From assembly GCA_038101125.1 (NCBI GenBank), contig JAYNVZ010000002.1:2353-66352 (forward strand): DNA of 64,000 nucleotides. The letters are read 5' to 3'. The translations under genes were made by a program, and so were the position numbers. Under the pieces are notes generated by a model, which was given only the letters and a program-made list of their open reading frames with translations, was not told the origin of the DNA and searched no databases. This document shows positions 2,433 through 22,690 of the stretch, piece by piece. Position 1 is the first letter of the stretch, and each line of letters begins with the position of its first letter. This DNA is from Gammaproteobacteria bacterium. Its GTDB lineage: Bacteria > Pseudomonadota > Gammaproteobacteria > GCA-002705445 > GCA-002716945.

Positions 2433-3512
2433 TTAAAATCTAATATAAGCAGATGAATTCAATGTTTTTCTTCCACCACGCCAGTTATCGATATGATGTT
2501 TAGTAAATGGCAACTCAGTCAATTCAAAGAATCTTGGCCATCCTATTCTTTCAATCCAATCATTTATACGTTCCCAATCCTTAGCATCTTCTTTGTAAAC
2601 TTTTAAGATCCTTTTTACTATAGCAGTCGCTTCTGGCCATCTAGGTGGATTATTAGGTATACCTGCAGCTACTAATTTTTGGAAAGTTGGTTTACTTCTT
2701 GCATTAGAATGGTTGCCACCTACCCAGATAGCTAATTTACTATGCTCTGGATCATTTATTTGCATTGGTGGACACGGAGGAAAACAAGCTCCACAGCAAA
2801 TACATTTCTTTTCATCTACTTCTAGTGAGGCCTTTCCATTAACCATTGCAGGTCTAATCGCTGCAACAGGACATCTAGCTACAACAGATGGTCTCTCACA
2901 TACGTTAGAAACTAGGTCATGATTAATTTTAGGTGGTTTGGTATGTTGTATATTAATTGCAATATCACCTTGACCACCACAGTTTATTTGACAACATGAT
3001 GTAGTCATGTGAACCCTGTTTGGCATCTCATTATTTTTAAATTCATCTATTAACTCATCCATCATTGCCTTTACAACACCAGATGCATCTGTTCCTGGGA
3101 TATCACAATGCAACCATCCTTGAGTATGAGATATCATTGCGACACTATTTTTAGTTCCACCAACAATGAAGCCTTCTTTTTCTAGTGCTTCAATTAATGG
3201 CTCAACTTTTTCTGAGTCTTTGACCATGTATTCAATGTTGCTTCTTATTGTGAATCTTACAAACCCATCTGCATATTTATCACCAATATCACAAAGTGTT
3301 CTTAGGGTAAATACATCTAAAATTCTCTGAGTTCCTGCTCTAATTGTCCAGATTTCATCACCACTCTCTGCCTTATGTCTTAATACTCCAGGCTTAGGGT
3401 GATCATGCCATTTCCATTGTCCAAAATTTTTTCGCATTGTTGGATGCATGTACTGAAATCCATCAGGAGCTCCAGTCTCTATAGGTGATCTTTGTTTTTT
3501 TTGTTCTGTCAT
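2433..3512 (-). CDS. dsrB: Dissimilatory sulfite reductase beta subunit
   Basis: 359 aa. It has sirohaem/FeS-binding Cys clusters and a ferredoxin-like insert (CPVAAIRP...CICCGAC). It follows dsrA. Confidence 0.9.
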   Translation of the reverse strand: MTEQKKQRSPIETGAPDGFQYMHPTMRKNFGQWKWHDHPKPGVLRHKAESGDEIWTIRAGTQRILDVFTLRTLCDIGDKYADGFVRFTIRSNIEYMVKDSEKVEPLIEALEKEGFIVGGTKNSVAMISHTQGWLHCDIPGTDASGVVKAMMDELIDEFKNNEMPNRVHMTTSCCQINCGGQGDIAINIQHTKPPKINHDLVSNVCERPSVVARCPVAAIRPAMVNGKASLEVDEKKCICCGACFPPCPPMQINDPEHSKLAIWVGGNHSNARSKPTFQKLVAAGIPNNPPRWPEATAIVKRILKVYKEDAKDWERINDWIERIGWPRFFELTELPFTKHHIDNWRGGRKTLNSSAYIRF

Positions 3513-3527
3513 AATTACTCTTCTCTT

Positions 3528-4781
3528 TTAAGCAGTGTCTTTCTTAGCGTCTGCACGTTCATACCATTTAACTGCTTCATCATCCCAATCATCTGTTCTT
3601 ACATAACTTGACTCTCTTGGGTTTGCAATCATATTTGGCTCAACTTCTACACCAATCCCTTCTAAGAAATTTACTAAACCAATTCTTTCGATCATCTCAC
3701 CGCATCTTTCATGTTCCAGCGCATTATCTGCCCAGAAATCAATCGTTTCCTCTGCAATTTCAACTAGCCTATCCCAGTCTTCTTCAGATTCTAGTTTCAT
3801 GAATGGAACTATTACCGTCCCCATTAAGTCGCCAATCTTAAGTGTTCTTTTGCCGCCAATAAGAATTGTTGCCCCTTTATCATCACCTGGATGTAAAGCT
3901 TTTGGCACCACGTTAAGACAATGCATACATTTTACACAATTCTGGTTATCGATTGTGACAGAATCATCGTCATTGAGAGATATTGCATTAGTTGGACAAC
4001 GTGTAACTATATTATCAATTACATATTTTCTACCCTTTAATCCAACATATGCTTTGAACTCTTCTTGATCTACTTTTATGTCATCTCTCCAAGTTCCTAT
4101 GACAGACATATCTGCTCTTTCTATAGAGTTCATGCAATCATTAGCACATCCTGATACTTTAAATTTGAATTTATATGGCAATGCAGGTCTATGCATATCG
4201 TCAATAAAATTATTTACTAATAATCTATGAGCTTTGTGTTCATTAACATTAGACATTTCGCATCTTCCAGCACCTACGCATGACATTGCTGTTCTCACGC
4301 ATGGACCAGCACCACCTAAATCCCACCCTTTTTCATTGATATCGTCGAAAAAGTGTTGCGTAGAATCGGTAGTTGACCCAATAAACATAATGTTGCCGGT
4401 TTGACCATGGAAAGTGACTAAACCAGAGCCATGTTTTTCCCATGAATCTGCTAGGTCTCGTAGTGATTGTGTAGTATAAAAATTACCTGCTGGAGGCTGA
4501 ACTCTTAAAGTATGGAATTCTTTTGACTTTGGAAATGCATCTCCAACTTCAGAAAATCTTGGAATGATACCGCCACCATATCCATATACACTTACTGTTC
4601 CACCTTTCCAGTATCCTTTTCTTGTTTCGTATGAATGTTCTAATTGACCTAATAAATCATTGGTCATTTCATTAATTCTTGTCTCTGGATGCGTATCTCT
4701 TAATCTTTTGATTCCACTAATGAAACTAGGCCATGGCCCGTTTTCTAGCTCATCTAACATAGGTGTATCGTGCTTTTTCAA
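3528..4781 (-). CDS. dsrA: Dissimilatory sulfite reductase alpha subunit
   Basis: 417 aa. It has DsrA-type Cys motifs (CVGAGRCE, ferredoxin domain CPTNAI...CVKCMHC). It is the first gene of the dsr operon, and dsrEFH downstream indicate the sulfur-oxidising type. Confidence 0.9.
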   Translation of the reverse strand: MKKHDTPMLDELENGPWPSFISGIKRLRDTHPETRINEMTNDLLGQLEHSYETRKGYWKGGTVSVYGYGGGIIPRFSEVGDAFPKSKEFHTLRVQPPAGNFYTTQSLRDLADSWEKHGSGLVTFHGQTGNIMFIGSTTDSTQHFFDDINEKGWDLGGAGPCVRTAMSCVGAGRCEMSNVNEHKAHRLLVNNFIDDMHRPALPYKFKFKVSGCANDCMNSIERADMSVIGTWRDDIKVDQEEFKAYVGLKGRKYVIDNIVTRCPTNAISLNDDDSVTIDNQNCVKCMHCLNVVPKALHPGDDKGATILIGGKRTLKIGDLMGTVIVPFMKLESEEDWDRLVEIAEETIDFWADNALEHERCGEMIERIGLVNFLEGIGVEVEPNMIANPRESSYVRTDDWDDEAVKWYERADAKKDTA

Positions 4782-4907: not shown

Positions 4908-5756
4908 ATGAATATACTCTTAAATACTAAAGAAGATTATAAACGCTGGAAAGATAAAAAACTAGAGTCATTTACTAGAAATATCGATCATCTAACAGTC
5001 CATATTTCTAATCCGAACAGTGTGAGCAAGCCTGAAAAAAATAAGGTAATTAGCCTTTTGAGAAGTAATAACCTAGCTTTTTTCAATATTGATAATATTA
5101 GTTATAAAGATAAATCATCCATCAAAAGATTTGCCTTTCAAATTGGACTAGGTGATTATGAATTAGATTCAAGATCGGATGATGATGGCCTCACAGAGAT
5201 AAAAGAACATAAGCATAACGATAAAATATCTGAGTATATTCCATACACTGCTAAAGAGCTAAATTGGCACACAGATGGCTACTATAATACTAAAGATAAT
5301 TCCATTTTATCATGGTTATTATTCTGTAAGACACAATCCGAAAAAGGCGGAGTTAACAAATATTTAGATCATGAAATCTCATATATTTTGTTTAACGATA
5401 TTAGTAATAAAATAAAAGATCTAATGTTAGAAAACACTTGCTGTATCCCAGAAAATCGAATGACTAAAAGGAAGGGGGTTCTTAATCCAGTTTATATGTT
5501 TAATGATGAGAAATTGCATATGAAGTTTAGTATGAGAAAAAAAAATATTATTTGGAATGATGTTAGTCTGAAAGCGATCAATATCCTAAAAAGTATTATA
5601 GAAGATTCATCTGAATATCATATAACAAAAAAATTTGCTGAAGGAGAAGGTGTAATAACAAATAATGTTATTCATAAGCGTACAGCATTTACAAATTCAG
5701 AAAATAAGAATAGGCTCTTATATAGATTAAGATCCAAAAGAAGAGTAATTAAGTGA
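4908..5756 (+). CDS. TauD/TfdA-family Fe(II)/2-oxoglutarate dioxygenase
   Basis: It has the WHTDG (HxD) motif. A distal GEGVITNNVIHKRT segment aligns with TauD GDLVMWDNRCLLHRAT (second His and Arg). The gene is divergent from dsrA. Confidence 0.6.
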   Translation: MNILLNTKEDYKRWKDKKLESFTRNIDHLTVHISNPNSVSKPEKNKVISLLRSNNLAFFNIDNISYKDKSSIKRFAFQIGLGDYELDSRSDDDGLTEIKEHKHNDKISEYIPYTAKELNWHTDGYYNTKDNSILSWLLFCKTQSEKGGVNKYLDHEISYILFNDISNKIKDLMLENTCCIPENRMTKRKGVLNPVYMFNDEKLHMKFSMRKKNIIWNDVSLKAINILKSIIEDSSEYHITKKFAEGEGVITNNVIHKRTAFTNSENKNRLLYRLRSKRRVIK

Positions 5757-5947
5757 TGTTGTACCTAAGCAGTTTATTGATAGAAGAAAAACAAATCGAA
5801 ACATTTGATGAATTACTAGAAGTCATTAAACAACGGGCAAAAGATGGGGAGATCTTTTTTAGGATTGATCTCAAACCTCCATTTCCTGATACGCCAGAAA
5901 ACTGGGAAGATAAAGTAGAATCAGCCTTTAACAGTTACATAGAATAA
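5753..5947 (+). CDS. hypothetical small acidic protein (64 aa), translationally coupled to the upstream gene (ATGA overlap)
   Basis: ORF with 4-nt overlap to the TauD-like gene. No recognisable domain. Confidence 0.3.
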   Translation: MMLYLSSLLIEEKQIETFDELLEVIKQRAKDGEIFFRIDLKPPFPDTPENWEDKVESAFNSYIE

Positions 5948-5949
5948 TA

Positions 5950-6624
5950 ATGTGGGAAGAAGAAGAACAAGTTCAGCTCAATGATACATCTAAAATGATA
6001 GATGTAACTTTTAGAATAGATTGCAAAACATTACCCTATGATCATGCTTATGCTTTATCTAATGAAATAACAAAAAATATGCCCTGGCTCTTAGAGAATA
6101 ATTTAACTGGCATACATACGCTTCATGGACCTGAGTCTGGTAATGGCTGGGTAAGATCAGAAAAAGAAGAAATCTTTTTATCCAAAAGAACACGTTTAGT
6201 TCTTAGAATTCCAAGGATTGATATAGAAAAAGCTAAAGAGCTCGAGAATGTTTCTGTGAACGTATTGGGCAATACCATTAAAATTGGTAAATCTAACACT
6301 AAAGCTTTCCTTGTTGTCAGAGACTTAATTAGCAGGTTTGTGTTATGTGACGAGAATGAAACTGAAGAGGACTTTCTTTTAAGTGTAAAAAAAGAATTAT
6401 TTTCTCATGGAGTCATGATAAAAAAAGCAATATGTGGCAAAGAAAAATCTTTCACAATAAATGGTAAAAATAGATTTACTCGCAGCCTGATGATTGCCGA
6501 TCTAAGTAAAGAAAACTCTGTTTTACTCCAAGATACTGGTGTAGGCAGTGGCAGAATATTTGGATGTGGTATTTTTCTACCTCATAAATCAATTGATGCA
6601 GTTTCTGGTTTCAAAGAAGACTAG
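5950..6624 (+). CDS. Cas6-like RAMP-superfamily protein (Cmx6-like), orphan
   Basis: N-terminus MIDVTFRIDCKTLPYDHAYALSNEI resembles the Cas6/Cmx6 N-terminal signature. A C-proximal glycine-rich loop GVGSGRIFGCG matches the GhGxxxxxGhG RAMP motif. No CRISPR repeats are seen in the window. Confidence 0.4.
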   Translation: MWEEEEQVQLNDTSKMIDVTFRIDCKTLPYDHAYALSNEITKNMPWLLENNLTGIHTLHGPESGNGWVRSEKEEIFLSKRTRLVLRIPRIDIEKAKELENVSVNVLGNTIKIGKSNTKAFLVVRDLISRFVLCDENETEEDFLLSVKKELFSHGVMIKKAICGKEKSFTINGKNRFTRSLMIADLSKENSVLLQDTGVGSGRIFGCGIFLPHKSIDAVSGFKED

Positions 6625-6708
6625 ATGATTCTTAAAATCCATATAGACATATTCTGATTAGTATATTAGAATTTTCACATATACAAAATAGGTTAGATGG
6701 AGTTTTAA

Positions 6709-7047
6709 ATGAAAGTTGAACTAAATGGTGTGCAAATTGAGACAACTGAGACTGGATTTCTAGTTAATCTTGAAGATTGGAATGAAGACATTGCTAAGGT
6801 AATTGCAACACAAGAGGAAATTGAACTAACTGACAGGCATTGGGATGTCATTAATTATTTAAGAGATGAATTTATCAATAATAAAGAGAATCAACCTAAT
6901 ACAAGAAATATGGTCAAAGATATCGGTAAAATTTGGGGTGAGAAAATTGATACTAAAACATTATTTGATTTATTCCCTGGCAATCCAAGCAAACAAGCTG
7001 GTAGAATAGGTGGTTTACCAGAAAGTAGGAGAAAAGGTGGATACTAA
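6709..7047 (+). CDS. DsrC/TusE-family paralog lacking both conserved C-terminal cysteines
   Basis: 112 aa, alignable along its length to the dsrC at 996-1328 (NLEDWNEDIAKVIA, WDVINYLRDEF, LFDLFPGNPSKQAG). It ends ...GLPESRRKGGY and has no Cys anywhere. Confidence 0.65.
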   Translation: MKVELNGVQIETTETGFLVNLEDWNEDIAKVIATQEEIELTDRHWDVINYLRDEFINNKENQPNTRNMVKDIGKIWGEKIDTKTLFDLFPGNPSKQAGRIGGLPESRRKGGY

Positions 7048-7271
7048 TGAGTGATATGAAAAAACTTGAAGAAGAGAGAAAAACTATAATTACTAAAATG
7101 CTTAAAATTCAGAAGGAATTTATGGAGCTAGAAAGAAAGGATGGTATTACAGAAAAAGATATACACCTCAATCCGACTGGAATAGTAAAAGAATACAAAG
7201 AAGAGCATGAAAAACTAGCAAATAGACTAGTTGATATAGCTCATGAACTTAAGGGGTCAATTAGAACATAA
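7047..7271 (+). CDS. hypothetical coiled-coil small protein (74 aa)
   Basis: ORF overlapping the upstream stop, with a charged heptad-like sequence. Confidence 0.3.
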   Translation: MSDMKKLEEERKTIITKMLKIQKEFMELERKDGITEKDIHLNPTGIVKEYKEEHEKLANRLVDIAHELKGSIRT

Positions 7272-7465
7272 TGAATAATGATTATTTTCAAAAAGTAAGC
7301 GAATTAGAAGAAATGAATGTTTCCGATGATTATATAATTGGTTGGCAAGAAGGCTATCAGCACGCTCCAAAACTAGAAGAACAAAGATTGACAGATGCGT
7401 ATGAAGCTGGATATGAAGACGGAGAAAATAACAATATAGAAAAGGCGGAAAAATTTAAGAAGTAA
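7271..7465 (+). CDS. hypothetical small acidic protein (64 aa)
   Basis: ORF coupled to the upstream gene by a 1-nt stop/start overlap (TAATG). Confidence 0.25.
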   Translation: MNNDYFQKVSELEEMNVSDDYIIGWQEGYQHAPKLEEQRLTDAYEAGYEDGENNNIEKAEKFKK

Positions 7466-8026
7466 CTACTTGGTTAGCGAGTTATACACATCTATAATTT
7501 TCTTACATATTTCCACCGCATCAATATCTACAATCTGATCCATAACCCATTTATTAGTTTGACTTGTTCCCATGGCATCCTGAATTTTTTTCGCAAGGTG
7601 ACGATAAATAGAATAGTTTGAACCACCGTTTGTAAATTCATAGTTTGAGTACTCTTCTGATCTTAAATTCAAAGTATTAATATAACCTTTTTTGTAATCT
7701 CCAATGCCAAATAAGTCCTCGCAATTTTCCTGCATTATTCTAGAAGACTGTTTGCCTAATATGTTCATAACTGCCATTCTATAATCATCTTTTTTTTTGT
7801 CTAAAAATAGAAGCCTATCTACAATATGGACTTGGAAAGACATAAACTCAACAATGACAGCTATACGTTGATGATCAGATGAATAATCAAAATCTTCTCC
7901 ATGAAGATTGCGTGCTTTATCTAAAGATAACTTCCAAGAAATATAAGATAAAGCGCTTGCAATATCTTCGCTAGTTTTCTGACGCTTTACCGTCTTTGAC
8001 CAATTACTCTTAATTCTAATTGCCAT
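7466..8026 (-). CDS. hypothetical protein (186 aa)
   Basis: Long ORF on the opposite strand inside the accessory block. No recognisable motif. Confidence 0.35.
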   Translation of the reverse strand: MAIRIKSNWSKTVKRQKTSEDIASALSYISWKLSLDKARNLHGEDFDYSSDHQRIAVIVEFMSFQVHIVDRLLFLDKKKDDYRMAVMNILGKQSSRIMQENCEDLFGIGDYKKGYINTLNLRSEEYSNYEFTNGGSNYSIYRHLAKKIQDAMGTSQTNKWVMDQIVDIDAVEICKKIIDVYNSLTK

Positions 8027-8108
8027 ATTAATTATCTTCTATATATTTAGGTTGTATTTTATACTATACACTCAACTATTAAGAATATAAATCTAGAGGT
8101 AATATCAA

Positions 8109-8702
8109 TTGGGTATTGAGATCAACAAAAGATTAATAGAAGTCAAACCTGGGAGTTTCATTTATGAATTCCAAAATAGCTTATCCACTGATGAATGCAA
8201 GAATATTATAAATAGATTTGAAGAGTCTAAAGATGACCATTACCAAGGAAGAGTAGGTCAAAATTTTACTAAAAATGCAGATGTAAAGAAGTCCACAGAT
8301 ATGGTAATAAGTGGCAAAGACAAATGGAAAGATGTGGATGAATTATTTTTTACTAGTTTATCTAAAGCTCTGAGTACTGTTAAAAAAGAATTTGATTTTT
8401 TTTCTGGGCCTTTTAAAGATATTGGTTATGCTGTACAACGAACTAAACCAGGTGAGTACTTTCATTGGCATATTGATAGCGGGAGCCATCAATTTAGCGA
8501 TAGACAATTAGTAGCAATTTGGTATCTGAATGATGTTGACGGGCCAGGCGGAGAAACTGAGTTCTTAAATCAAGACGTTAAAGTAAAACCTGAAGCTGGG
8601 AAACTTATATTGTTTCCACCATTTTGGACTCATGAGCATCGTGGTGTTACACTTCAAAAAGGTATTAAATATATAGCAACTACATGGATAGTATTTAAAT
8701 AA
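8109..8702 (+). CDS. 2OG-Fe(II) oxygenase superfamily protein (prolyl-4-hydroxylase-like), TTG start
   Basis: HWHIDSG (HxD) plus distal THEHRG His fit a double-stranded beta-helix 2-His-1-carboxylate site. Confidence 0.55.
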   Translation: MGIEINKRLIEVKPGSFIYEFQNSLSTDECKNIINRFEESKDDHYQGRVGQNFTKNADVKKSTDMVISGKDKWKDVDELFFTSLSKALSTVKKEFDFFSGPFKDIGYAVQRTKPGEYFHWHIDSGSHQFSDRQLVAIWYLNDVDGPGGETEFLNQDVKVKPEAGKLILFPPFWTHEHRGVTLQKGIKYIATTWIVFK

Positions 8703-9820
8703 TGACGTCTAATAAAGATTTATCTAACCAAGAACTTATGAAATCTGTGATTCAGAGAATAGCTACTGGACCGGAGCTAAGTAAGAATATTTCAAGAGAA
8801 GAAGCTAAACGATCAATGTCATCAATTTTAGATGGTGACATAAGTGATGTACGCTCAGCAATTTTTTTGATTGCCCTTAGAATGAAAAGAGAAACTACAG
8901 ACGAAAATTTAGGCGTTCATGATGCCATGATAGATTCTGTTAAAACTCTTGATGTACAGGCTGAAAATTTAGTTAATATAGCAGACCCATATGATGGCTT
9001 TACTAGAAATATCCCATCATCAGCATTCATATTACCTGTATTAGCAGAATTAGGTATACCAGCCATTTCTCAAGGTGTAGAAACTGTTGGACCAAAATTT
9101 GGATGCACACATCATGCAATTTTTAAACTTTTAGGATTGGACGTAAATGCATCCCATATAAATGTTGCTGAAAGGATTAACAACAAAGATATTGGATGGG
9201 GGTATATGGATCAAAAAATTTTCTCTCCTAAATTAAATAATCTAATGTCTCTAAGAACAGAGATAATAAAAAGGCCTGTCGTCACAACCATAGAAGTTCT
9301 TGCTAACCCATTAATATCTAAAAAAAATCATTTTGTTACAGGATATGTTCATAAACCTTATCCTCCAATATATTTAAACTTGGCTAGGAATGCTAAATTT
9401 AATACAGCTATCGTCATTCGTGGAACAGAAGGTGGAGTAATACCCTCTTTGAGACAAAAGTCTAACGCTCATTTTTACAATGATATTCAAGAAGAAGATC
9501 AAATATTAGAAATTGACCCTGAGGTAGATTTAAATATAAATCAAAGCGTTAGAGCAGTTAATATACCTGAGTCAATTAAGAAAAAAAGTACTCATGATAA
9601 AATTGAAACTAAGGTAAATCCGATGGATCTTGCTAAAGAATCACTAAAGCTTGGAATGAAGGCTTTATCTGGAGAAGATGGTCCAATGGCTGACTGTATC
9701 ATCTATGGTGCATCGCTCATACTCAACCATGTTACTAGCAGTGGCATTAAATCTTCTTCAAATGAGATTAAGAAGGTACTTAAATCTGGAAGTGCCCTGA
9801 CCCGCTTCAAGCAAATATAG
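8702..9820 (+). CDS. Glycosyltransferase family 3 / TrpD-like protein (divergent, lacks canonical GTGGD)
   Basis: N-terminal helical domain LSKNISREEAKRSMSSILDGDISDVRSAIFLIALRMKRETTDE resembles TrpD. Later blocks are collinear with TrpD (RGTEGGVIPSL ~ HSGGMDEVSL; C-terminal VLKSGSALTRF ~ VLRSGSAYDRV). It has DPYDGFTRN in place of GTGGD. Confidence 0.45.
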   Translation: MTSNKDLSNQELMKSVIQRIATGPELSKNISREEAKRSMSSILDGDISDVRSAIFLIALRMKRETTDENLGVHDAMIDSVKTLDVQAENLVNIADPYDGFTRNIPSSAFILPVLAELGIPAISQGVETVGPKFGCTHHAIFKLLGLDVNASHINVAERINNKDIGWGYMDQKIFSPKLNNLMSLRTEIIKRPVVTTIEVLANPLISKKNHFVTGYVHKPYPPIYLNLARNAKFNTAIVIRGTEGGVIPSLRQKSNAHFYNDIQEEDQILEIDPEVDLNINQSVRAVNIPESIKKKSTHDKIETKVNPMDLAKESLKLGMKALSGEDGPMADCIIYGASLILNHVTSSGIKSSSNEIKKVLKSGSALTRFKQI

Positions 9821-9822
9821 TA

Positions 9823-10122
9823 ATGATTAAACTAATTAATATAAATGATCTTGATAATGATAATATGATGCAAGTAACTATTAATAGCCATAACTATTTA
9901 GTTGCTAAGATTGATGATAATTTTTATGTCACAACAGATATGTGTACTCATGAAGATGCTGAGCTAACAATGGGTTGTTTAAATGGTACCAAAGTCAAAT
10001 GTCCACTTCATGGAAGTTATTTTGATTTGAATACTGGTATTGCACTTAATGAACCTGCGGATGAGCCAATAAAAACTTATAAGACTGTGATACAAGATAA
10101 CCATTTGTATATTGATGAATAA
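9823..10122 (+). CDS. Rieske [2Fe-2S] ferredoxin
   Basis: CTHEDA...CPLHG (CxH-x15-17-CxxH) Rieske motif, 99 aa. Confidence 0.7.
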   Translation: MIKLININDLDNDNMMQVTINSHNYLVAKIDDNFYVTTDMCTHEDAELTMGCLNGTKVKCPLHGSYFDLNTGIALNEPADEPIKTYKTVIQDNHLYIDE

Positions 10123-10134
10123 TTCAGAAAAAAA

Positions 10135-10581
10135 ATGAATATGAATACTATAGAAAAATTTGACTGGGGATGCAGGCACACATGGAACCAATCTGCAGTT
10201 AACACATTATGGTGTTTATTGGGCTGCAGTATTGGAGATATTGGTACAATCTATTATTTCCAATATCACAATATAATGTGGTCAACAGCATCAATTATGT
10301 TACTGGCAATGTTTAATGGAATACTTACAAGCATTATTTTAGAGACAGTTATTTTATTAAAACAAATGAGTATAAAAAATGCATTCAAGACTGCCGTTGG
10401 AATGAGCTTAATATCAATGATCAGCATGGAGTTTGCAATGAATCTGGTTGACTATTTAATGACTGGAGGTGCCAAAATTACCCTAAGCGTTTTACCAATT
10501 ATGTTATTAGCTGGTTTTCTAACACCTTGGCCTTATAATTATTGGAGGTTAAAAAAGTATGGTGTTGGCTGTTGTGGTTAA
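10135..10581 (+). CDS. DUF4396-like small membrane protein
   Basis: 148 aa, 4 TM. The LLGCSIGDIGT motif is reminiscent of DUF4396. It ends in CCG. Confidence 0.4.
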   Translation: MNMNTIEKFDWGCRHTWNQSAVNTLWCLLGCSIGDIGTIYYFQYHNIMWSTASIMLLAMFNGILTSIILETVILLKQMSIKNAFKTAVGMSLISMISMEFAMNLVDYLMTGGAKITLSVLPIMLLAGFLTPWPYNYWRLKKYGVGCCG

Positions 10582-13449: not shown

Positions 13450-13770
13450 TTAAAGATAACTATGTGGAGGAGATCGAGGTGTTTTAAAAAATGATTTTGT
13501 TGTATGTTTGAATTCTTTTTTATTTTGAACTAACAAGATAGGTTTTCTAACCATAAAAATATTCATATGATCAGCATGAGATGCCATATCAAAATAATAT
13601 GAACAATGATCACAAGGAATAATGTGGTTGTTAGTAGATTGATCAGTATGAAACTTACAAATATCACTCTCGTGATCCGCAATGTCATTCGAAGAAATTA
13701 CAGCGACAGGGAATGCGCCTACGCATATCAATAAAACAATTAAGCTGTAGTATTTACGAATATTTATCAT
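13450..13770 (-). CDS. small secreted Cys/His-rich protein (106 aa), first gene of the receptor-exbB operon
   Basis: Signal peptide followed by HESDICKFHTDQSTNNHIIPCDHCSYYFDMASHADHMN (His/Cys-rich). It sits upstream of the TonB-dependent receptor on the same strand. Confidence 0.4.
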   Translation of the reverse strand: MINIRKYYSLIVLLICVGAFPVAVISSNDIADHESDICKFHTDQSTNNHIIPCDHCSYYFDMASHADHMNIFMVRKPILLVQNKKEFKHTTKSFFKTPRSPPHSYL

Positions 13771-17304: not shown

Positions 17305-17861
17305 ATAGAACAGACAATATCAATAAATATATTATTTTAGCTTTTATAGTCCATTCTATGTTTCTGGTATCTTTTTCAATAAATAGATCAGTAAGTGATA
17401 TTACGAAAATAGGTGAAACAGGTATGACAGTTCAGATGATAATTCTTGAAACTAGTGATGAGATATATGAGAAAAGTTTTGCATCTGAAGAAATAAGAAA
17501 TAAAACTGAAGATTCAGAAAAAGAACAACAAGTTCTCATAGATAATAGAGCGGTTGGTGATAAATCTGAAAATGTATATGATACGTATTACGGAAGAGTC
17601 AGACAGATAATTGATGGTAATAAAAGTTATCCGTTACTGGCAAGACAACGCAAACAAGAAGGGTCGCCAAAAGTTAGTTTTACAATTCTAAAAAATGGAA
17701 TAGTGGAAAAATTATCTGTTGACTCATCGGGCTATAGAATTTTAGATAGGGAAGCTAGACGCATTATCATGATTTCGTCACCTTTCCCTGAAATACCAGA
17801 TAGCATGAATAAGAATTCTATAGATTTAACTATTCCAATAAATTTTAAGTTAAATAATTAA
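17301..17861 (+). CDS. tonB: TonB energy transducer (C-terminal TonB domain)
   Basis: 186 aa with an N-terminal TM and C-terminal domain (GSPKVSFTILKNGIVEKLSVDSSGYRILDREARRII). It is last in the exbD-exbD-tonB operon. Confidence 0.65.
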   Translation: MNRTDNINKYIILAFIVHSMFLVSFSINRSVSDITKIGETGMTVQMIILETSDEIYEKSFASEEIRNKTEDSEKEQQVLIDNRAVGDKSENVYDTYYGRVRQIIDGNKSYPLLARQRKQEGSPKVSFTILKNGIVEKLSVDSSGYRILDREARRIIMISSPFPEIPDSMNKNSIDLTIPINFKLNN

Positions 17862-19252
17862 TCTGTATTATACCAGTTTAATTTCTCTCGTAGATTTACA
17901 ACAAAACCTATTATAAAAATTGTTGGCGCCATAGGTTTTTTTTCTTTTACGAGTTGACTCATGTTTTCAACTGTTGATGTATAAACTTTTTGATCTGGAG
18001 TTGTTCCTTGTTGCACTAATGCACATGGAGTTTTTGAATCTAATCCATTGGCTATTAATTGACTACAAATTATATCTATTGATACAAGTCCCATATAAAA
18101 CACGATAGTTTGATTTGGTTGTATGAGTTTCTCCCAATTTAAATCTAATTTTCCTTCTTTCAAATGACCTGTTACAAATATACATGATTGTGCATGATCT
18201 CTATGAGTTAATGGTATGCCGCTATATGCTGAGCAACCACTTGCGCTTGTAATTCCTGGAACTACTTGAAATGAAACATTATTGTCAACTAATGTATCAA
18301 TTTCCTCTCCTCCTCTTCCAAAAATAAATGGATCTCCTCCTTTTAGCCTAAGAACTCTTTTGCCTTGCTTCGCATACTTAACAAGTAAACTATTAATTTC
18401 TTCCTGTCTAACAGTATGGTTATCTCTCTGTTTTCCAACGTATATTTTTTGAGCATCTCGGCGTATCAAATCAATAATCGATGGATGAACTAACCTATCA
18501 TATAACGCAATATCGGCCTGTTGCATTAATCTTAAAGCTCTAAAAGTTAACAAATCAGGATCGCCAGGACCTGCGCCAACTAAATAAACTTCGCCTTCGC
18601 CTTTTTTTTCTTCATCAAAGCTATTTATTTCTTTATTAAGATAATTTACTGCCTCGTTATCTTGTCCACTTAAAACAAGTTCAACAAATTTACCATTCAG
18701 CATCTGCTCCCAAAAGATTCTATTAGACTTTGAATTAACTAATTTTTTTCTGACTGGTATTCTATTTTCAGAAACAATCTTAGCTAGTCGACCATAAGCA
18801 CCAGGTATCATTGTTTCAAGTTTTGTCCTTAGTAATCTTGCCAAAACTGGAGAAGAGCCTCCGGTTGATACTGCTACAGTTATAGGACCCCTCTCTAATA
18901 TAGATGGGAATATAAAATCGCAAATATTAGGCTTATCAACTACATTTACTAAAATGCCTTTATGATTTGCCTGGCTGGCTATTTCTTCATTTAAAGATTC
19001 ATCATTTGTTGCAGCTATTACAAAAGAAAAATTATTATCCATATGTTCAGTTTTATAGGTACTGCTGATAGCAGTTATATTTTTATTATTTTTAATTAAG
19101 TCAAGAATATAGTCTGTAAACTGCGGAGATATAATAGTCAGCTTGGCATTAGCTTTTAGTAATAAATCCAATTTCCTTTCAGCAACTTCTCCACCACCAA
19201 TTAATAGAACGGACTGCTTGCTGAGTTCCATGAAAAAAGGGAAGTATTTCAT
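17858..19252 (-). CDS. cysG: Sirohaem synthase (precorrin-2 dehydrogenase/ferrochelatase fused to uroporphyrinogen-III C-methyltransferase)
   Basis: 464 aa with an N-terminal Rossmann GGGEVAERK and C-terminal SUMT domain (VYLVGAGPGDPDLLTFRA...). Sirohaem is the DsrAB cofactor. Confidence 0.85.
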   Translation of the reverse strand: MKYFPFFMELSKQSVLLIGGGEVAERKLDLLLKANAKLTIISPQFTDYILDLIKNNKNITAISSTYKTEHMDNNFSFVIAATNDESLNEEIASQANHKGILVNVVDKPNICDFIFPSILERGPITVAVSTGGSSPVLARLLRTKLETMIPGAYGRLAKIVSENRIPVRKKLVNSKSNRIFWEQMLNGKFVELVLSGQDNEAVNYLNKEINSFDEEKKGEGEVYLVGAGPGDPDLLTFRALRLMQQADIALYDRLVHPSIIDLIRRDAQKIYVGKQRDNHTVRQEEINSLLVKYAKQGKRVLRLKGGDPFIFGRGGEEIDTLVDNNVSFQVVPGITSASGCSAYSGIPLTHRDHAQSCIFVTGHLKEGKLDLNWEKLIQPNQTIVFYMGLVSIDIICSQLIANGLDSKTPCALVQQGTTPDQKVYTSTVENMSQLVKEKKPMAPTIFIIGFVVNLREKLNWYNTD

Positions 19253-19692
19253 TAAGATTTTTCTATCCCAGCTTTTTTATACCAGTATTGTGATTTCTCA
19301 AGATCTTGAGGAACAAGTTTGCCTTCTTCATAAATCATAGCTAGGGTGGTTGCTGATCCCATTAAACCTTGGTTTGCAGCTTTCGTAAACCACTCGATAC
19401 TTTTATCAATGTCCTTCTCCGTGCACTCCCCTTCAAAAAACATAAAGCCGTATGCATGTTGCGCCAACGGATAACCTTTCATAGCTGCACTTTCCATATA
19501 AGTAAATGCTTTTTCTGTGCTCGCCTGACACCCTAAACCATTTTGTAGCATTATTGCCATTCGATACATAGCTTCAACATTTCCTTCAGAAGCAATTGGA
19601 GATAATAATTTAATAGCATGAGCAAAATTTTTAGTTTCAAAAGCAGCTATTCCGCTTTCTAATTCCATAGCTCTATTTTCATATTTATCCAT
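19252..19692 (-). CDS. Sel1-repeat (TPR-like) protein
   Basis: Repeated A-x-Y/F-x-L-G-x-M-Y-x-x-G blocks (AMYRMAIMLQNG..., LAQHAYGFMFFEG...). Confidence 0.55.
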   Translation of the reverse strand: MDKYENRAMELESGIAAFETKNFAHAIKLLSPIASEGNVEAMYRMAIMLQNGLGCQASTEKAFTYMESAAMKGYPLAQHAYGFMFFEGECTEKDIDKSIEWFTKAANQGLMGSATTLAMIYEEGKLVPQDLEKSQYWYKKAGIEKS

Positions 19693-22294: not shown

Positions 22295-22690
22295 ATGCAA
22301 AAAATAATAGATAATATAGGAATAACTATATCAGCAGCCTGTGCAATACACTGTGTATTATTACCTGCAATTCTTATAATCGCTCCATACTCCTTTTTTG
22401 CTAGCCATGAATTTCATGAAACTTTAATTTATTTTATTCTGCCCTTTGCGGCCATCGCGTTCTATTTAGGATGTCGAAAACATGGAGATTATAAAGTTGT
22501 CTTGATGGGTGTAACAGGAATAGTTTTGTTGGCAACATCCTTGGTAATACATGAAGTTTTTCACTCAGAACAACATTCAGAAGAATTTCTGTCTATACTT
22601 ATAACAATTGGGGGAAGTTTAATATTAATTTTTTCTCATCTTAGAAATGCAAAGTTGTGCCGACAAGTAAATTTCGATTGTCATAAATAA
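22295..22690 (+). CDS. MerC-like small membrane protein
   Basis: 131 aa, 4 TM. It has an N-terminal AACAIHCVLLPAIL motif similar to the MerC metal-binding TM1. Confidence 0.4.
   Translation: MQKIIDNIGITISAACAIHCVLLPAILIIAPYSFFASHEFHETLIYFILPFAAIAFYLGCRKHGDYKVVLMGVTGIVLLATSLVIHEVFHSEQHSEEFLSILITIGGSLILIFSHLRNAKLCRQVNFDCHK

Follow-up and report, generated by a model that had tools for sequence, protein, structure and literature searches.

Four genes lie almost end to end on the + strand at positions 8109-10581 of the 64,000-nucleotide stretch of gammaproteobacterial contig JAYNVZ010000002.1 that we analysed (hereafter the window), and the question that they raise is whether so compact an arrangement encodes one pathway. 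Their open reading frames (ORFs) are separated by gaps of -1, +2 and +12 nt and specify a 2-oxoglutarate (2OG)-Fe(II) oxygenase, a protein of the TrpD fold that we call TrpD2L, a soluble Rieske [2Fe-2S] ferredoxin and a membrane protein of family DUF4396. An earlier reading made from the DNA letters alone (the sequence-only reading) had assigned the four genes to a single small-molecule pathway, and its description of the cluster, the ORF coordinates, the tight spacing, the quoted sequence motifs and the GVGCCG end of the membrane protein proved accurate. The genes are real, since homologues of each number in the hundreds, and the identical four-gene order was seen again in SUP05-like genomes and metagenome contigs. 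Outside this SUP05-like clade the four genes separate, which tells against the single pathway, and on the best-supported reading TrpD2L and the Rieske ferredoxin are the only robust functional unit within 8109-10581.

The TrpD2-like protein

TrpD2L (372 aa; 8702-9820, + strand) matched a single Pfam family, Glycos_trans_3N, which covers the helical N-terminal domain of glycosyltransferase family 3, with 54.5 bits. Among the NCBIfam models, its top curated match was PRK07394 (NF005635; 147 bits), an uncharacterised family labelled 'hypothetical protein', yet this score lies below the cut-off of 287. YbiB (NF006005) followed with 101.4 bits against a cut-off of 185, PRK09071 with 77 against 257 and trpD (TIGR01245) with 72.3 against 199.05. 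PRK07394 was also the top-scoring curated model for remote members of the TrpD2L family. Judged by these sequence scores TrpD2L is in no named family and is nearer to TrpD2 than to TrpD: though it misses the YbiB cut-off, its YbiB score exceeds its trpD score.

The AlphaFold2 model of TrpD2L (pLDDT 87.8) had TrpD structures as its top Foldseek matches, with TM scores of 0.75-0.77 and E-values of ~1e-16 to 1e-18, and the protein is accordingly modelled as having the two-domain type III phosphoribosyltransferase fold. The overall fold is common to TrpD2L and TrpD (1V8G, 1ZVW), and the sequence K-R-E-T-x-D-E in the N-domain of TrpD2L matches K-G-E-T-x-E-E of TrpD. The differences concern the active site, for which the roles of the TrpD residues (GTGGD, the K135/N138/R139-type contacts and R193) were taken from PMC9835598. 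Alignment to Thermus thermophilus TrpD (1V8G) placed the DPYDGFTRN segment of TrpD2L on the GTGGDG loop, confirming what the sequence-only reading had noted: DPYDG stands in place of the GTGGD that binds phosphoribosyl pyrophosphate (PRPP). In the same alignment TrpD2L has S-Q-G-V-E where TrpD has K-H-G-N-R. The anthranilate-binding R193 of M. tuberculosis TrpD corresponds to R191, which is kept in TrpD2L. With 72 bits against a cut-off of 199 and its PRPP contacts replaced, TrpD2L is very probably, as had been supposed, a divergent paralogue and not the housekeeping TrpD.

At E<=1e-30 the TrpD2L family comprises 306 clusters at 50% identity. Invariant residues in the close family are D95-G99, R102, P131-K132, G134, T136-H137, W166, Y168, D170, R185, K190-R191, T196, E198, H217, Y220, R240-G241 and E243-G245. 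They map to the loops that form the TrpD active-site cleft, and a core of them persists at 28-40% identity. The family also has motifs of its own, namely GPKxGxTH, TGYVHKxY and RGxEGGxxPSLRQ. Among remote members only G99 of the loop is strictly invariant; the variants DPYSG, DPFNG and DIYNG occur, and GTGGD occurs in none. The isoelectric points (pI) of the family range from 5.2 to 8.8, most being slightly acidic, and it has no conserved cysteine. Phosphoribosyl transfer of the TrpD type is disfavoured because the PRPP loop has been lost family-wide, and from its sequence TrpD2L is most likely not a PRPP transferase of any kind. The phosphoribosyl transfer that had been suggested for the locus is therefore unlikely in its canonical form, the PRPP-binding motif being lost in every family member examined. 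Databases usually name the members of this family 'anthranilate phosphoribosyltransferase', a name that is almost certainly wrong.

E. coli YbiB (TrpD2; 4MUO, 8BFR) resembles TrpD2L in having the two-domain TrpD fold without the PRPP motif. Both proteins carry a P-x-Y-[N/D]-G loop at the GTGGD position and G-T-E-G at the G-x-D-E metal site of TrpD. The residues of YbiB that match the TrpD2L cleft bind nucleic acid and an acidic peptide. R92 and K93 of YbiB align with T101 and R102 of TrpD2L, and R123 with F133 beside the invariant K132, each with an offset of one residue; R92 and R123 are the conserved groove arginines named in PMC10123104. The surroundings of the two proteins differ, YbiB having a LexA/dinG context, whereas TrpD2L has a Rieske ferredoxin as its partner, a sulfur-oxidation context and a near-neutral family pI. 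No helicase gene was found adjoining TrpD2L in the window or in the 80 genome loci described below; one remote homologue, from Nitrospirota, follows an Lhr helicase.

A remote subgroup of 420-450 aa (P0347, P0359, P0375 and P0382) carries an N-terminal extension of ~100 aa without a Pfam match, which resembles a second copy of the N-terminal helical segment. A Rieske fusion in these ~420-450-aa members was ruled out, as Pfam shows no Rieske domain in the extension. The 1072-aa protein P0352, in which anti-phage helicase-like domains accompany a TrpD2L fragment, was set aside as a one-off or chimera.

Genomic pairing with a Rieske ferredoxin

The gene downstream of TrpD2L encodes a soluble Rieske [2Fe-2S] ferredoxin of 99 aa (9823-10122, + strand), which matched Pfam Rieske with 61.6 bits (cut-off 20.3) and Rieske_2 with 31.4 bits. 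Its cluster ligands, C41-x-H43 and C60-x-x-H63, are all at least 90% conserved in 65 homologues. TrpD2L loci were collected from one genome per species; more than 597 were found, and homologues of the window proteins were mapped onto the best 80. In 57 of these 80 genomes a Rieske gene adjoins TrpD2L on the same strand, 45 times downstream and 12 times upstream. The spacing of the two genes is mostly -4 to +15 nt, with 18 cases of a 4-nt overlap, some of them in genomes of 4-5 Mb, whose genes are not as a rule tightly packed. The pair was also found in loci L007-L009, L095 and L097 and appears in otherwise unrelated gene contexts, its distant members adjoining a gene for a YeeE-type sulfur transporter or a periplasmic rhodanese. 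The earlier expectation that the neighbours would be co-conserved in relatives was thus borne out for the Rieske gene (57/80) and half borne out for the oxygenase; it failed for DUF4396, which adjoins TrpD2L in the SUP05-like clade only.

The PDB sequences closest to the Rieske protein are ferredoxins of ring-hydroxylating dioxygenases. It shares with HcaC, the NDO ferredoxin 2QPZ, CarAc and NirD, which are among its top PDB and NCBIfam matches, a length of ~100 aa, solubility and the CxH...CxxH ligands, and it falls below the HcaC cut-off (77.7 against 113). Unlike the ferredoxins of three-component dioxygenases, its constant neighbour is a TrpD2-like protein. Membership of a three-component Rieske oxygenase system, with a cognate alpha subunit and reductase nearby, was not borne out: phmmer (E<=10) returned no oxygenase alpha subunit and no second Rieske-domain ORF in the 64-kb window, where a ferredoxin reductase was not searched for, and no oxygenase family is conserved beside the TrpD2L/Rieske pair across the 80 loci. 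ORFs of ~360 aa with a Rieske domain in GC-rich loci were considered as fusions and rejected as over-extended ORF calls.

The sequence-only reading had cast the Rieske protein as the dedicated electron donor of the neighbouring 2OG oxygenase. Enzymes of the latter class draw their electrons from 2-oxoglutarate and need no ferredoxin, so the idea of a dedicated donor for the hydroxylase fails on enzymological grounds. It is also unlikely on genomic grounds, because it is TrpD2L, not the oxygenase, that the Rieske gene accompanies. In a second clade of TrpD2L loci (L036, L041, L051, L054, L067, L080 and L086), with genome GC of 36-58%, the gene order is TrpD2L, c12, hyp186, DUF6866, 2OG (c12 and hyp186 being described below), and no Rieske gene is adjacent. 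The reverse holds in a third, large clade, which has the TrpD2L/Rieske pair only and lacks the 2OG oxygenase.

The slot between TrpD2L and DUF4396 varies among SUP05-like genomes (L010, L011, L012, L016, L017, L018, L092 and L093), where it is occupied by the Rieske gene, by a single-Cys DsrC-like gene or by the two together, or else is empty. The single-Cys DsrC-like protein of this slot ends in ...QQACKIAGMRQPKKLWLDL.

Every named host among the best 80 loci is a sulfur oxidiser; they include Thiodiazotropha, Thiocystis, Thiorhodococcus, Sedimenticola, Thiogranum, Thiobacillus and Hydrogenophilaceae, together with Acidiferrobacterales, Thiohalomonadales, Thioalkalispiraceae, Chromatiaceae and Ectothiorhodospiraceae. 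The sulfur-related neighbours of TrpD2L comprise dsrABEFHC, rhodanese, the YeeE-type sulfur transporter and the siroheme synthase CysG with a Sel1-repeat protein, the Sel1 cluster being present in 26 loci and the CysG cluster in 21. CysG and Sel1 are directly divergent from TrpD2L in the second clade, an arrangement to which L082 and L087 add an attached Rieske gene. A MoxR-type AAA gene, a DUF2201 VWA gene and an uncharacterised gene for a 379-aa protein often lie between CysG/Sel1 and TrpD2L in other lineages. The context of TrpD2L points to dsr, siroheme and sulfur metabolism instead of the nucleobase or aromatic-amine metabolism that had been suggested.

The oxygenase, DUF4396 and the surrounding genes

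The first gene of the cluster (8109-8702, + strand) starts with TTG and encodes a 197-aa 2OG-Fe(II) oxygenase of the prolyl 4-hydroxylase (P4H) type, which matched PF13640 (2OG-FeII_Oxy_3) with 51.9 bits against a cut-off of 27. The HWHIDSG and THEHRG motifs are present, and close homologues show no variation at the iron triad H121-x-D123...H177 or at K187, which binds 2OG. The nearest PDB sequences are prolyl 4-hydroxylases (E ~1e-6). Like the P4H enzymes of B. anthracis (3ITQ/5HV0) and PBCV-1 (5C5T) and the PiuC/YbiX PKHD enzymes, the window protein combines a double-stranded beta-helix domain with an HxD...H triad and, 10 residues beyond the distal His, a Lys. Against the PiuC/YbiX PKHD model NF003974 it scored 28.8 bits, below the cut-off of 143. 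What sets it apart from the known P4H and PKHD enzymes is its high conservation and its linkage to hyp186 and DUF6866. Each of its 120 best-matching homologues shares at least 77% identity, and a structure model built on an alignment of such sequences reached a pLDDT of only 36.

A divergent gene for a 186-aa protein, hyp186 (7466-8026, - strand), is the companion of the oxygenase in two clades: its homologues lie beside the 2OG gene in L010-L022 and in the seven loci of the second clade. No family or structure match was found for hyp186 in Pfam, NCBIfam, PADLOC or the PDB. The small acidic ORF c12 (64 aa; 7271-7465, + strand) occurs in 19 loci, is 45% identical to the L036 copy and directly follows the TrpD2L gene in the Rieske-less clade. 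The oxygenase, hyp186 and c12 thus co-localise with TrpD2L in two non-sister TrpD2L clades, in which genome GC spans 32-58% and gene order is rearranged; in the SUP05-like clade they are adjacent.

Further genes form an operon-like run on the + strand from 4908 to 7271, divergent from dsrA. The run begins with a TauD-like gene (4908-5756, + strand; PF02668, 40.9 bits), which confirms the earlier observation of two 2OG oxygenases within 4 kb, and continues with the small ORF c27 (64 aa; 5753-5947, + strand), a gene for a Cas6/Cmx6-family protein (5950-6624, + strand; TIGR02807, 112 bits against 98.85; Pfam Cas6, 179 bits), a gene for a cysteine-free DsrC/TusE-like protein (6709-7047, + strand; NCBIfam and Pfam), named TusE in databases, and the small ORF c23 (74 aa; 7047-7271, + strand). 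None of the small ORFs c27, c23 and c12 has a family match. Despite the Cas6/Cmx6-family protein, the 64-kb window contains no CRISPR array and no second cas gene. Since it lacks any cysteine, the DsrC-like protein of this run cannot serve as a sulfur carrier of the DsrC or TusE type; its C-terminal arm ends in ...GRIGGLPESRRKGGY, as it does in L010 and L036.

The TauD-like, Cas6-like and cysteine-free DsrC-like genes recur next to dsrAB in L036 and L051, in rearranged order and within the same 10 kb. Identity to the window copies across these clades is 74-75% for the DsrC-like protein, 63-66% for the 2OG oxygenase, 44-47% for TrpD2L, 39-41% for the Cas6-like protein, 32-35% for the TauD-like protein and 26-35% for hyp186. 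The small ORFs c27, c23 and c12 have conserved counterparts of 45-50% identity in a distant clade. Flanking the oxygenase in the second clade are genes for a DUF6866 protein, for a GNAT acetyltransferase and for another 2OG hydroxylase, of the PKHD type (L036, 13003-16210), and L051-type loci (L051, 11358-13193) have HMA-domain, CC-motif membrane and Cys-rich genes inserted between TrpD2L and hyp186. None of these genes from L036 and L051 was found in the window.

The last gene of the cluster (10135-10581, + strand) encodes the DUF4396 membrane protein (148 aa; PF14342, 124.4 bits against 27), which ends in GVGCCG. Two cysteine features are conserved in 16 homologues, a WCLxGCSxGD motif, which places a CxxxC in a predicted membrane helix, and a Cys-Cys at the C-terminus. 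The PDB holds no sequence relatives of this protein, and our literature search returned a single mention of DUF4396, as a gene flanking a metal-resistance island (PMC7760498). Its reading frame ends in a 4-nt overlap with the convergent exbB gene.

The window, which takes up nearly the whole of a 66.5-kb contig of a marine metagenome-assembled genome, has a GC content of ~32% without a compositional break and is ~95% coding; 64% of same-strand neighbours lie 13 nt or less apart, with a median of 9 nt. Such spacing being the norm, that of the cluster is uninformative on functional unity. A sigma-70-like promoter match, TTGCCA-16-TATATT (8020..8047, + strand), lies in the 82 nt that separate the cluster from the divergent gene 7466-8026; 8 nt 5' of the TTG start codon at 8109 there is a GAGG ribosome-binding site. 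Shuffled sequence gives promoter-like matches at least as often as this AT-rich region does, and we discounted both the match and the genome-typical spacing as evidence. No terminator-like site was seen inside 8109-10581. As judged from these signals the four genes are probably co-transcribed in their host, a marine sulfur oxidiser of low GC and SUP05-like type. Scans of the window found no Rfam family, tRNA or CRISPR-like array, and PADLOC returned only generic 2OG and Cas6 domain matches, with no sign of a defence system.

On the other side of the operon-like run lie the genes of the dissimilatory sulfite reductase, dsrA (3528-4781, - strand) and dsrB (2433-3512, - strand), identified from the ORF list and from homologous loci with NIR_SIR Pfam matches, followed along the - strand by dsrEFH and then dsrC, with DsrE, DsrH and DsrC Pfam matches in homologous loci. 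Downstream of the cluster come exbB, two TonB-dependent receptor genes, two exbD genes and tonB, and then CysG (17858-19252, - strand) and the Sel1-repeat protein (19252-19692, - strand), both assigned by Pfam and by homology to the L036 copies; the gene for the MerC-family protein merC (22295-22690, + strand; Pfam) lies beyond. The CysG and Sel1 pair is 7 kb from the cluster, past the TonB block. The block of TonB, ExbBD and receptor genes looks like an insertion between TrpD2L and CysG/Sel1, because these adjoin directly in other lineages. Between the two TonB-dependent receptors lies a 106-aa His/Cys-rich ORF (13450-13770, - strand) without a family match; together with DUF4396 and MerC it makes three putative thiophilic-metal proteins within 13 kb.

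Explanations for the locus

We propose, with about even confidence, that the locus is a composite in which three parts, instead of a single pathway, make up a gene neighbourhood accessory to oxidative Dsr and siroheme metabolism. The first part would be the two-gene module of TrpD2L and the soluble Rieske ferredoxin, which extends across sulfur-oxidising Gamma- and Betaproteobacteria. The conserved and mostly basic cleft of TrpD2L (R102, K132, H137, R185, K190/R191, H217, R240 and E243) would bind an anionic ligand or partner, for which nucleic acid, an acidic protein such as c12 and a polyanionic cofactor are candidates. The Rieske protein may physically pair with TrpD2L as its redox-active partner, serving as a sensor or as a one-electron relay. 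Our confidence in this assignment of an anion-binding cleft and a redox sensor or relay is modest. The second part would be the 2OG oxygenase, as an independent P4H-type hydroxylase grouped with hyp186, the small acidic ORFs and the dsrA-adjacent TauD-like, Cas6-like and DsrC-like set; its extreme conservation and P4H-type signature suggest that it probably acts on a protein substrate. The third part, DUF4396, would be a lineage-specific membrane protein at the edge of the TonB uptake cluster; with its cysteine motifs it is a probable carrier for a sulfur species or a thiophilic metal.

Several points weigh against this proposal. The Rieske partnership is not obligatory, because in 19 of the 80 genomes no Rieske gene lies closer than 10 kb to TrpD2L and in two SUP05-like genomes the Rieske slot is empty. 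Direct linkage to dsr is seen in only two clades, and in the largest clade the pair lies amid unrelated housekeeping genes. The range of family pI disfavours non-specific nucleic-acid binding of the YbiB type, and the strong conservation of the cleft would equally fit a true enzyme acting on a small molecule. The case for co-transcription consists solely of spacing, a single promoter-like match and the lack of internal terminator-like sites. Finally, literature searches turned up neither an experiment nor a paper on the TrpD2L clade, on the Rieske protein that accompanies it or on the set of genes beside dsr. A wider and more tentative possibility is that TrpD2L/Rieske, the oxygenase, hyp186, the small ORFs and the TauD-like, Cas6-like and DsrC-like proteins together form an undescribed accessory system of the oxidative (reverse) Dsr. 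Such a system could be a redox-gated regulator or a maturation device, and in the latter case the TrpD2-fold protein would be coupled to its iron-sulfur partner while the DsrC-like carrier or a small protein would be hydroxylated.

A single four-gene pathway, in which TrpD2L would carry out (phospho)ribosyl transfer, the 2OG oxygenase hydroxylation and the Rieske protein electron supply while DUF4396 imported or exported the compound, seems to us rather unlikely. All SUP05-like genomes and contigs that we examined keep the four genes in one order, the oxygenase retains its catalytic residues and the Rieske protein its cluster ligands, and the TrpD2L cleft is conserved in an enzyme-like manner, R191 included. 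However, the GTGGD loop and the K/N/R contacts are replaced across the family, outside one clade Rieske occurs without oxygenase and oxygenase without Rieske, a 2OG oxygenase does not require a ferredoxin, and tight spacing is the norm of this genome. Moreover, no reductase or other pathway enzyme is conserved beside the four genes, although no search was aimed at a reductase. The cluster could instead be a metal-acquisition operon of the adjoining TonB system, with a PiuC/YbiX-like oxygenase, DUF4396 as a permease for thiophilic metal and the Rieske protein as a reductive helper. The presence of exbB, two TonB-dependent receptors, two exbD genes and tonB directly next in every SUP05-like locus agrees with this, as do the weak match of the oxygenase to the PiuC-type model NF003974, the DUF4396 cysteine motifs, which recall MerT and MerC, the location of a DUF4396 gene at the edge of a metal-resistance island, the merC gene in the window and the HMA-domain and CC-motif membrane genes of L051-type loci. 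Yet the PiuC score is far under its cut-off, the TrpD2L/Rieske pair mostly has no TonB genes nearby, the oxygenase elsewhere accompanies hyp186 and DUF6866 and not receptors, and the TonB block itself is insertion-like; we regard this operon as quite unlikely.

The relationship to YbiB, a nucleic-acid-binding protein whose gene accompanies that of the DinG helicase (PMC10123104, PMC5445326), raises nucleic-acid modification or repair as another option, with TrpD2L binding DNA or RNA and the oxygenases, the Cas6-like and the TusE-like proteins acting on RNA or tRNA. TrpD2L is nearer to YbiB than to TrpD and keeps basic residues at near-equivalent positions, the Cas6/Cmx6 protein passes its NCBIfam cut-off in a window without a CRISPR array, and a TusE/DsrC-family protein is present. 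In L094 (3558-9146), moreover, which comes from a Nitrospirota metagenome-assembled genome, a gap of 40 nt separates the gene for a 1467-aa Lhr-type helicase from the homologue that follows it, which is 40% identical to TrpD2L. This Lhr-TrpD2L arrangement echoes the dinG-ybiB operon of E. coli. Against this stand the near-neutral or acidic family pI, a helicase linkage that is a single case, the lack of conserved repair genes nearby in any of the 80 loci, the score below the YbiB cut-off and a consistent context of sulfur metabolism, and we consider nucleic-acid modification or repair unlikely. The annotation found in databases, that of a divergent housekeeping anthranilate phosphoribosyltransferase, would account for the TrpD-like fold and for the absence of a canonical trpD from the 64-kb window. 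It is highly improbable given the shortfall against the trpD equivalog cut-off, the missing GTGGD and PRPP contacts, which are otherwise strictly conserved, the absence of trp genes among the TrpD2L neighbours in ~90 loci, and the occurrence of the family in sulfur oxidisers as opposed to universally.

TrpD2L is best regarded as a TrpD2-related fold for which both the partner and the context are new. To our knowledge the TrpD2/YbiB superfamily is still without a known biochemical function, and a sister clade with a Rieske partner and a restriction to sulfur oxidisers offers a testable handle on what the TrpD fold does after PRPP chemistry has been lost. Mis-annotation of TrpD2L can, in addition, corrupt reconstructions of tryptophan biosynthesis in metagenome-assembled genomes. 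The roughly nine conserved but functionally uncharacterised genes that lie against dsrAB in the globally abundant SUP05-type bacteria are candidate regulatory or maturation factors of reverse Dsr, and the interest of the locus would rise considerably if this wider gene set were such a regulatory or maturation system.

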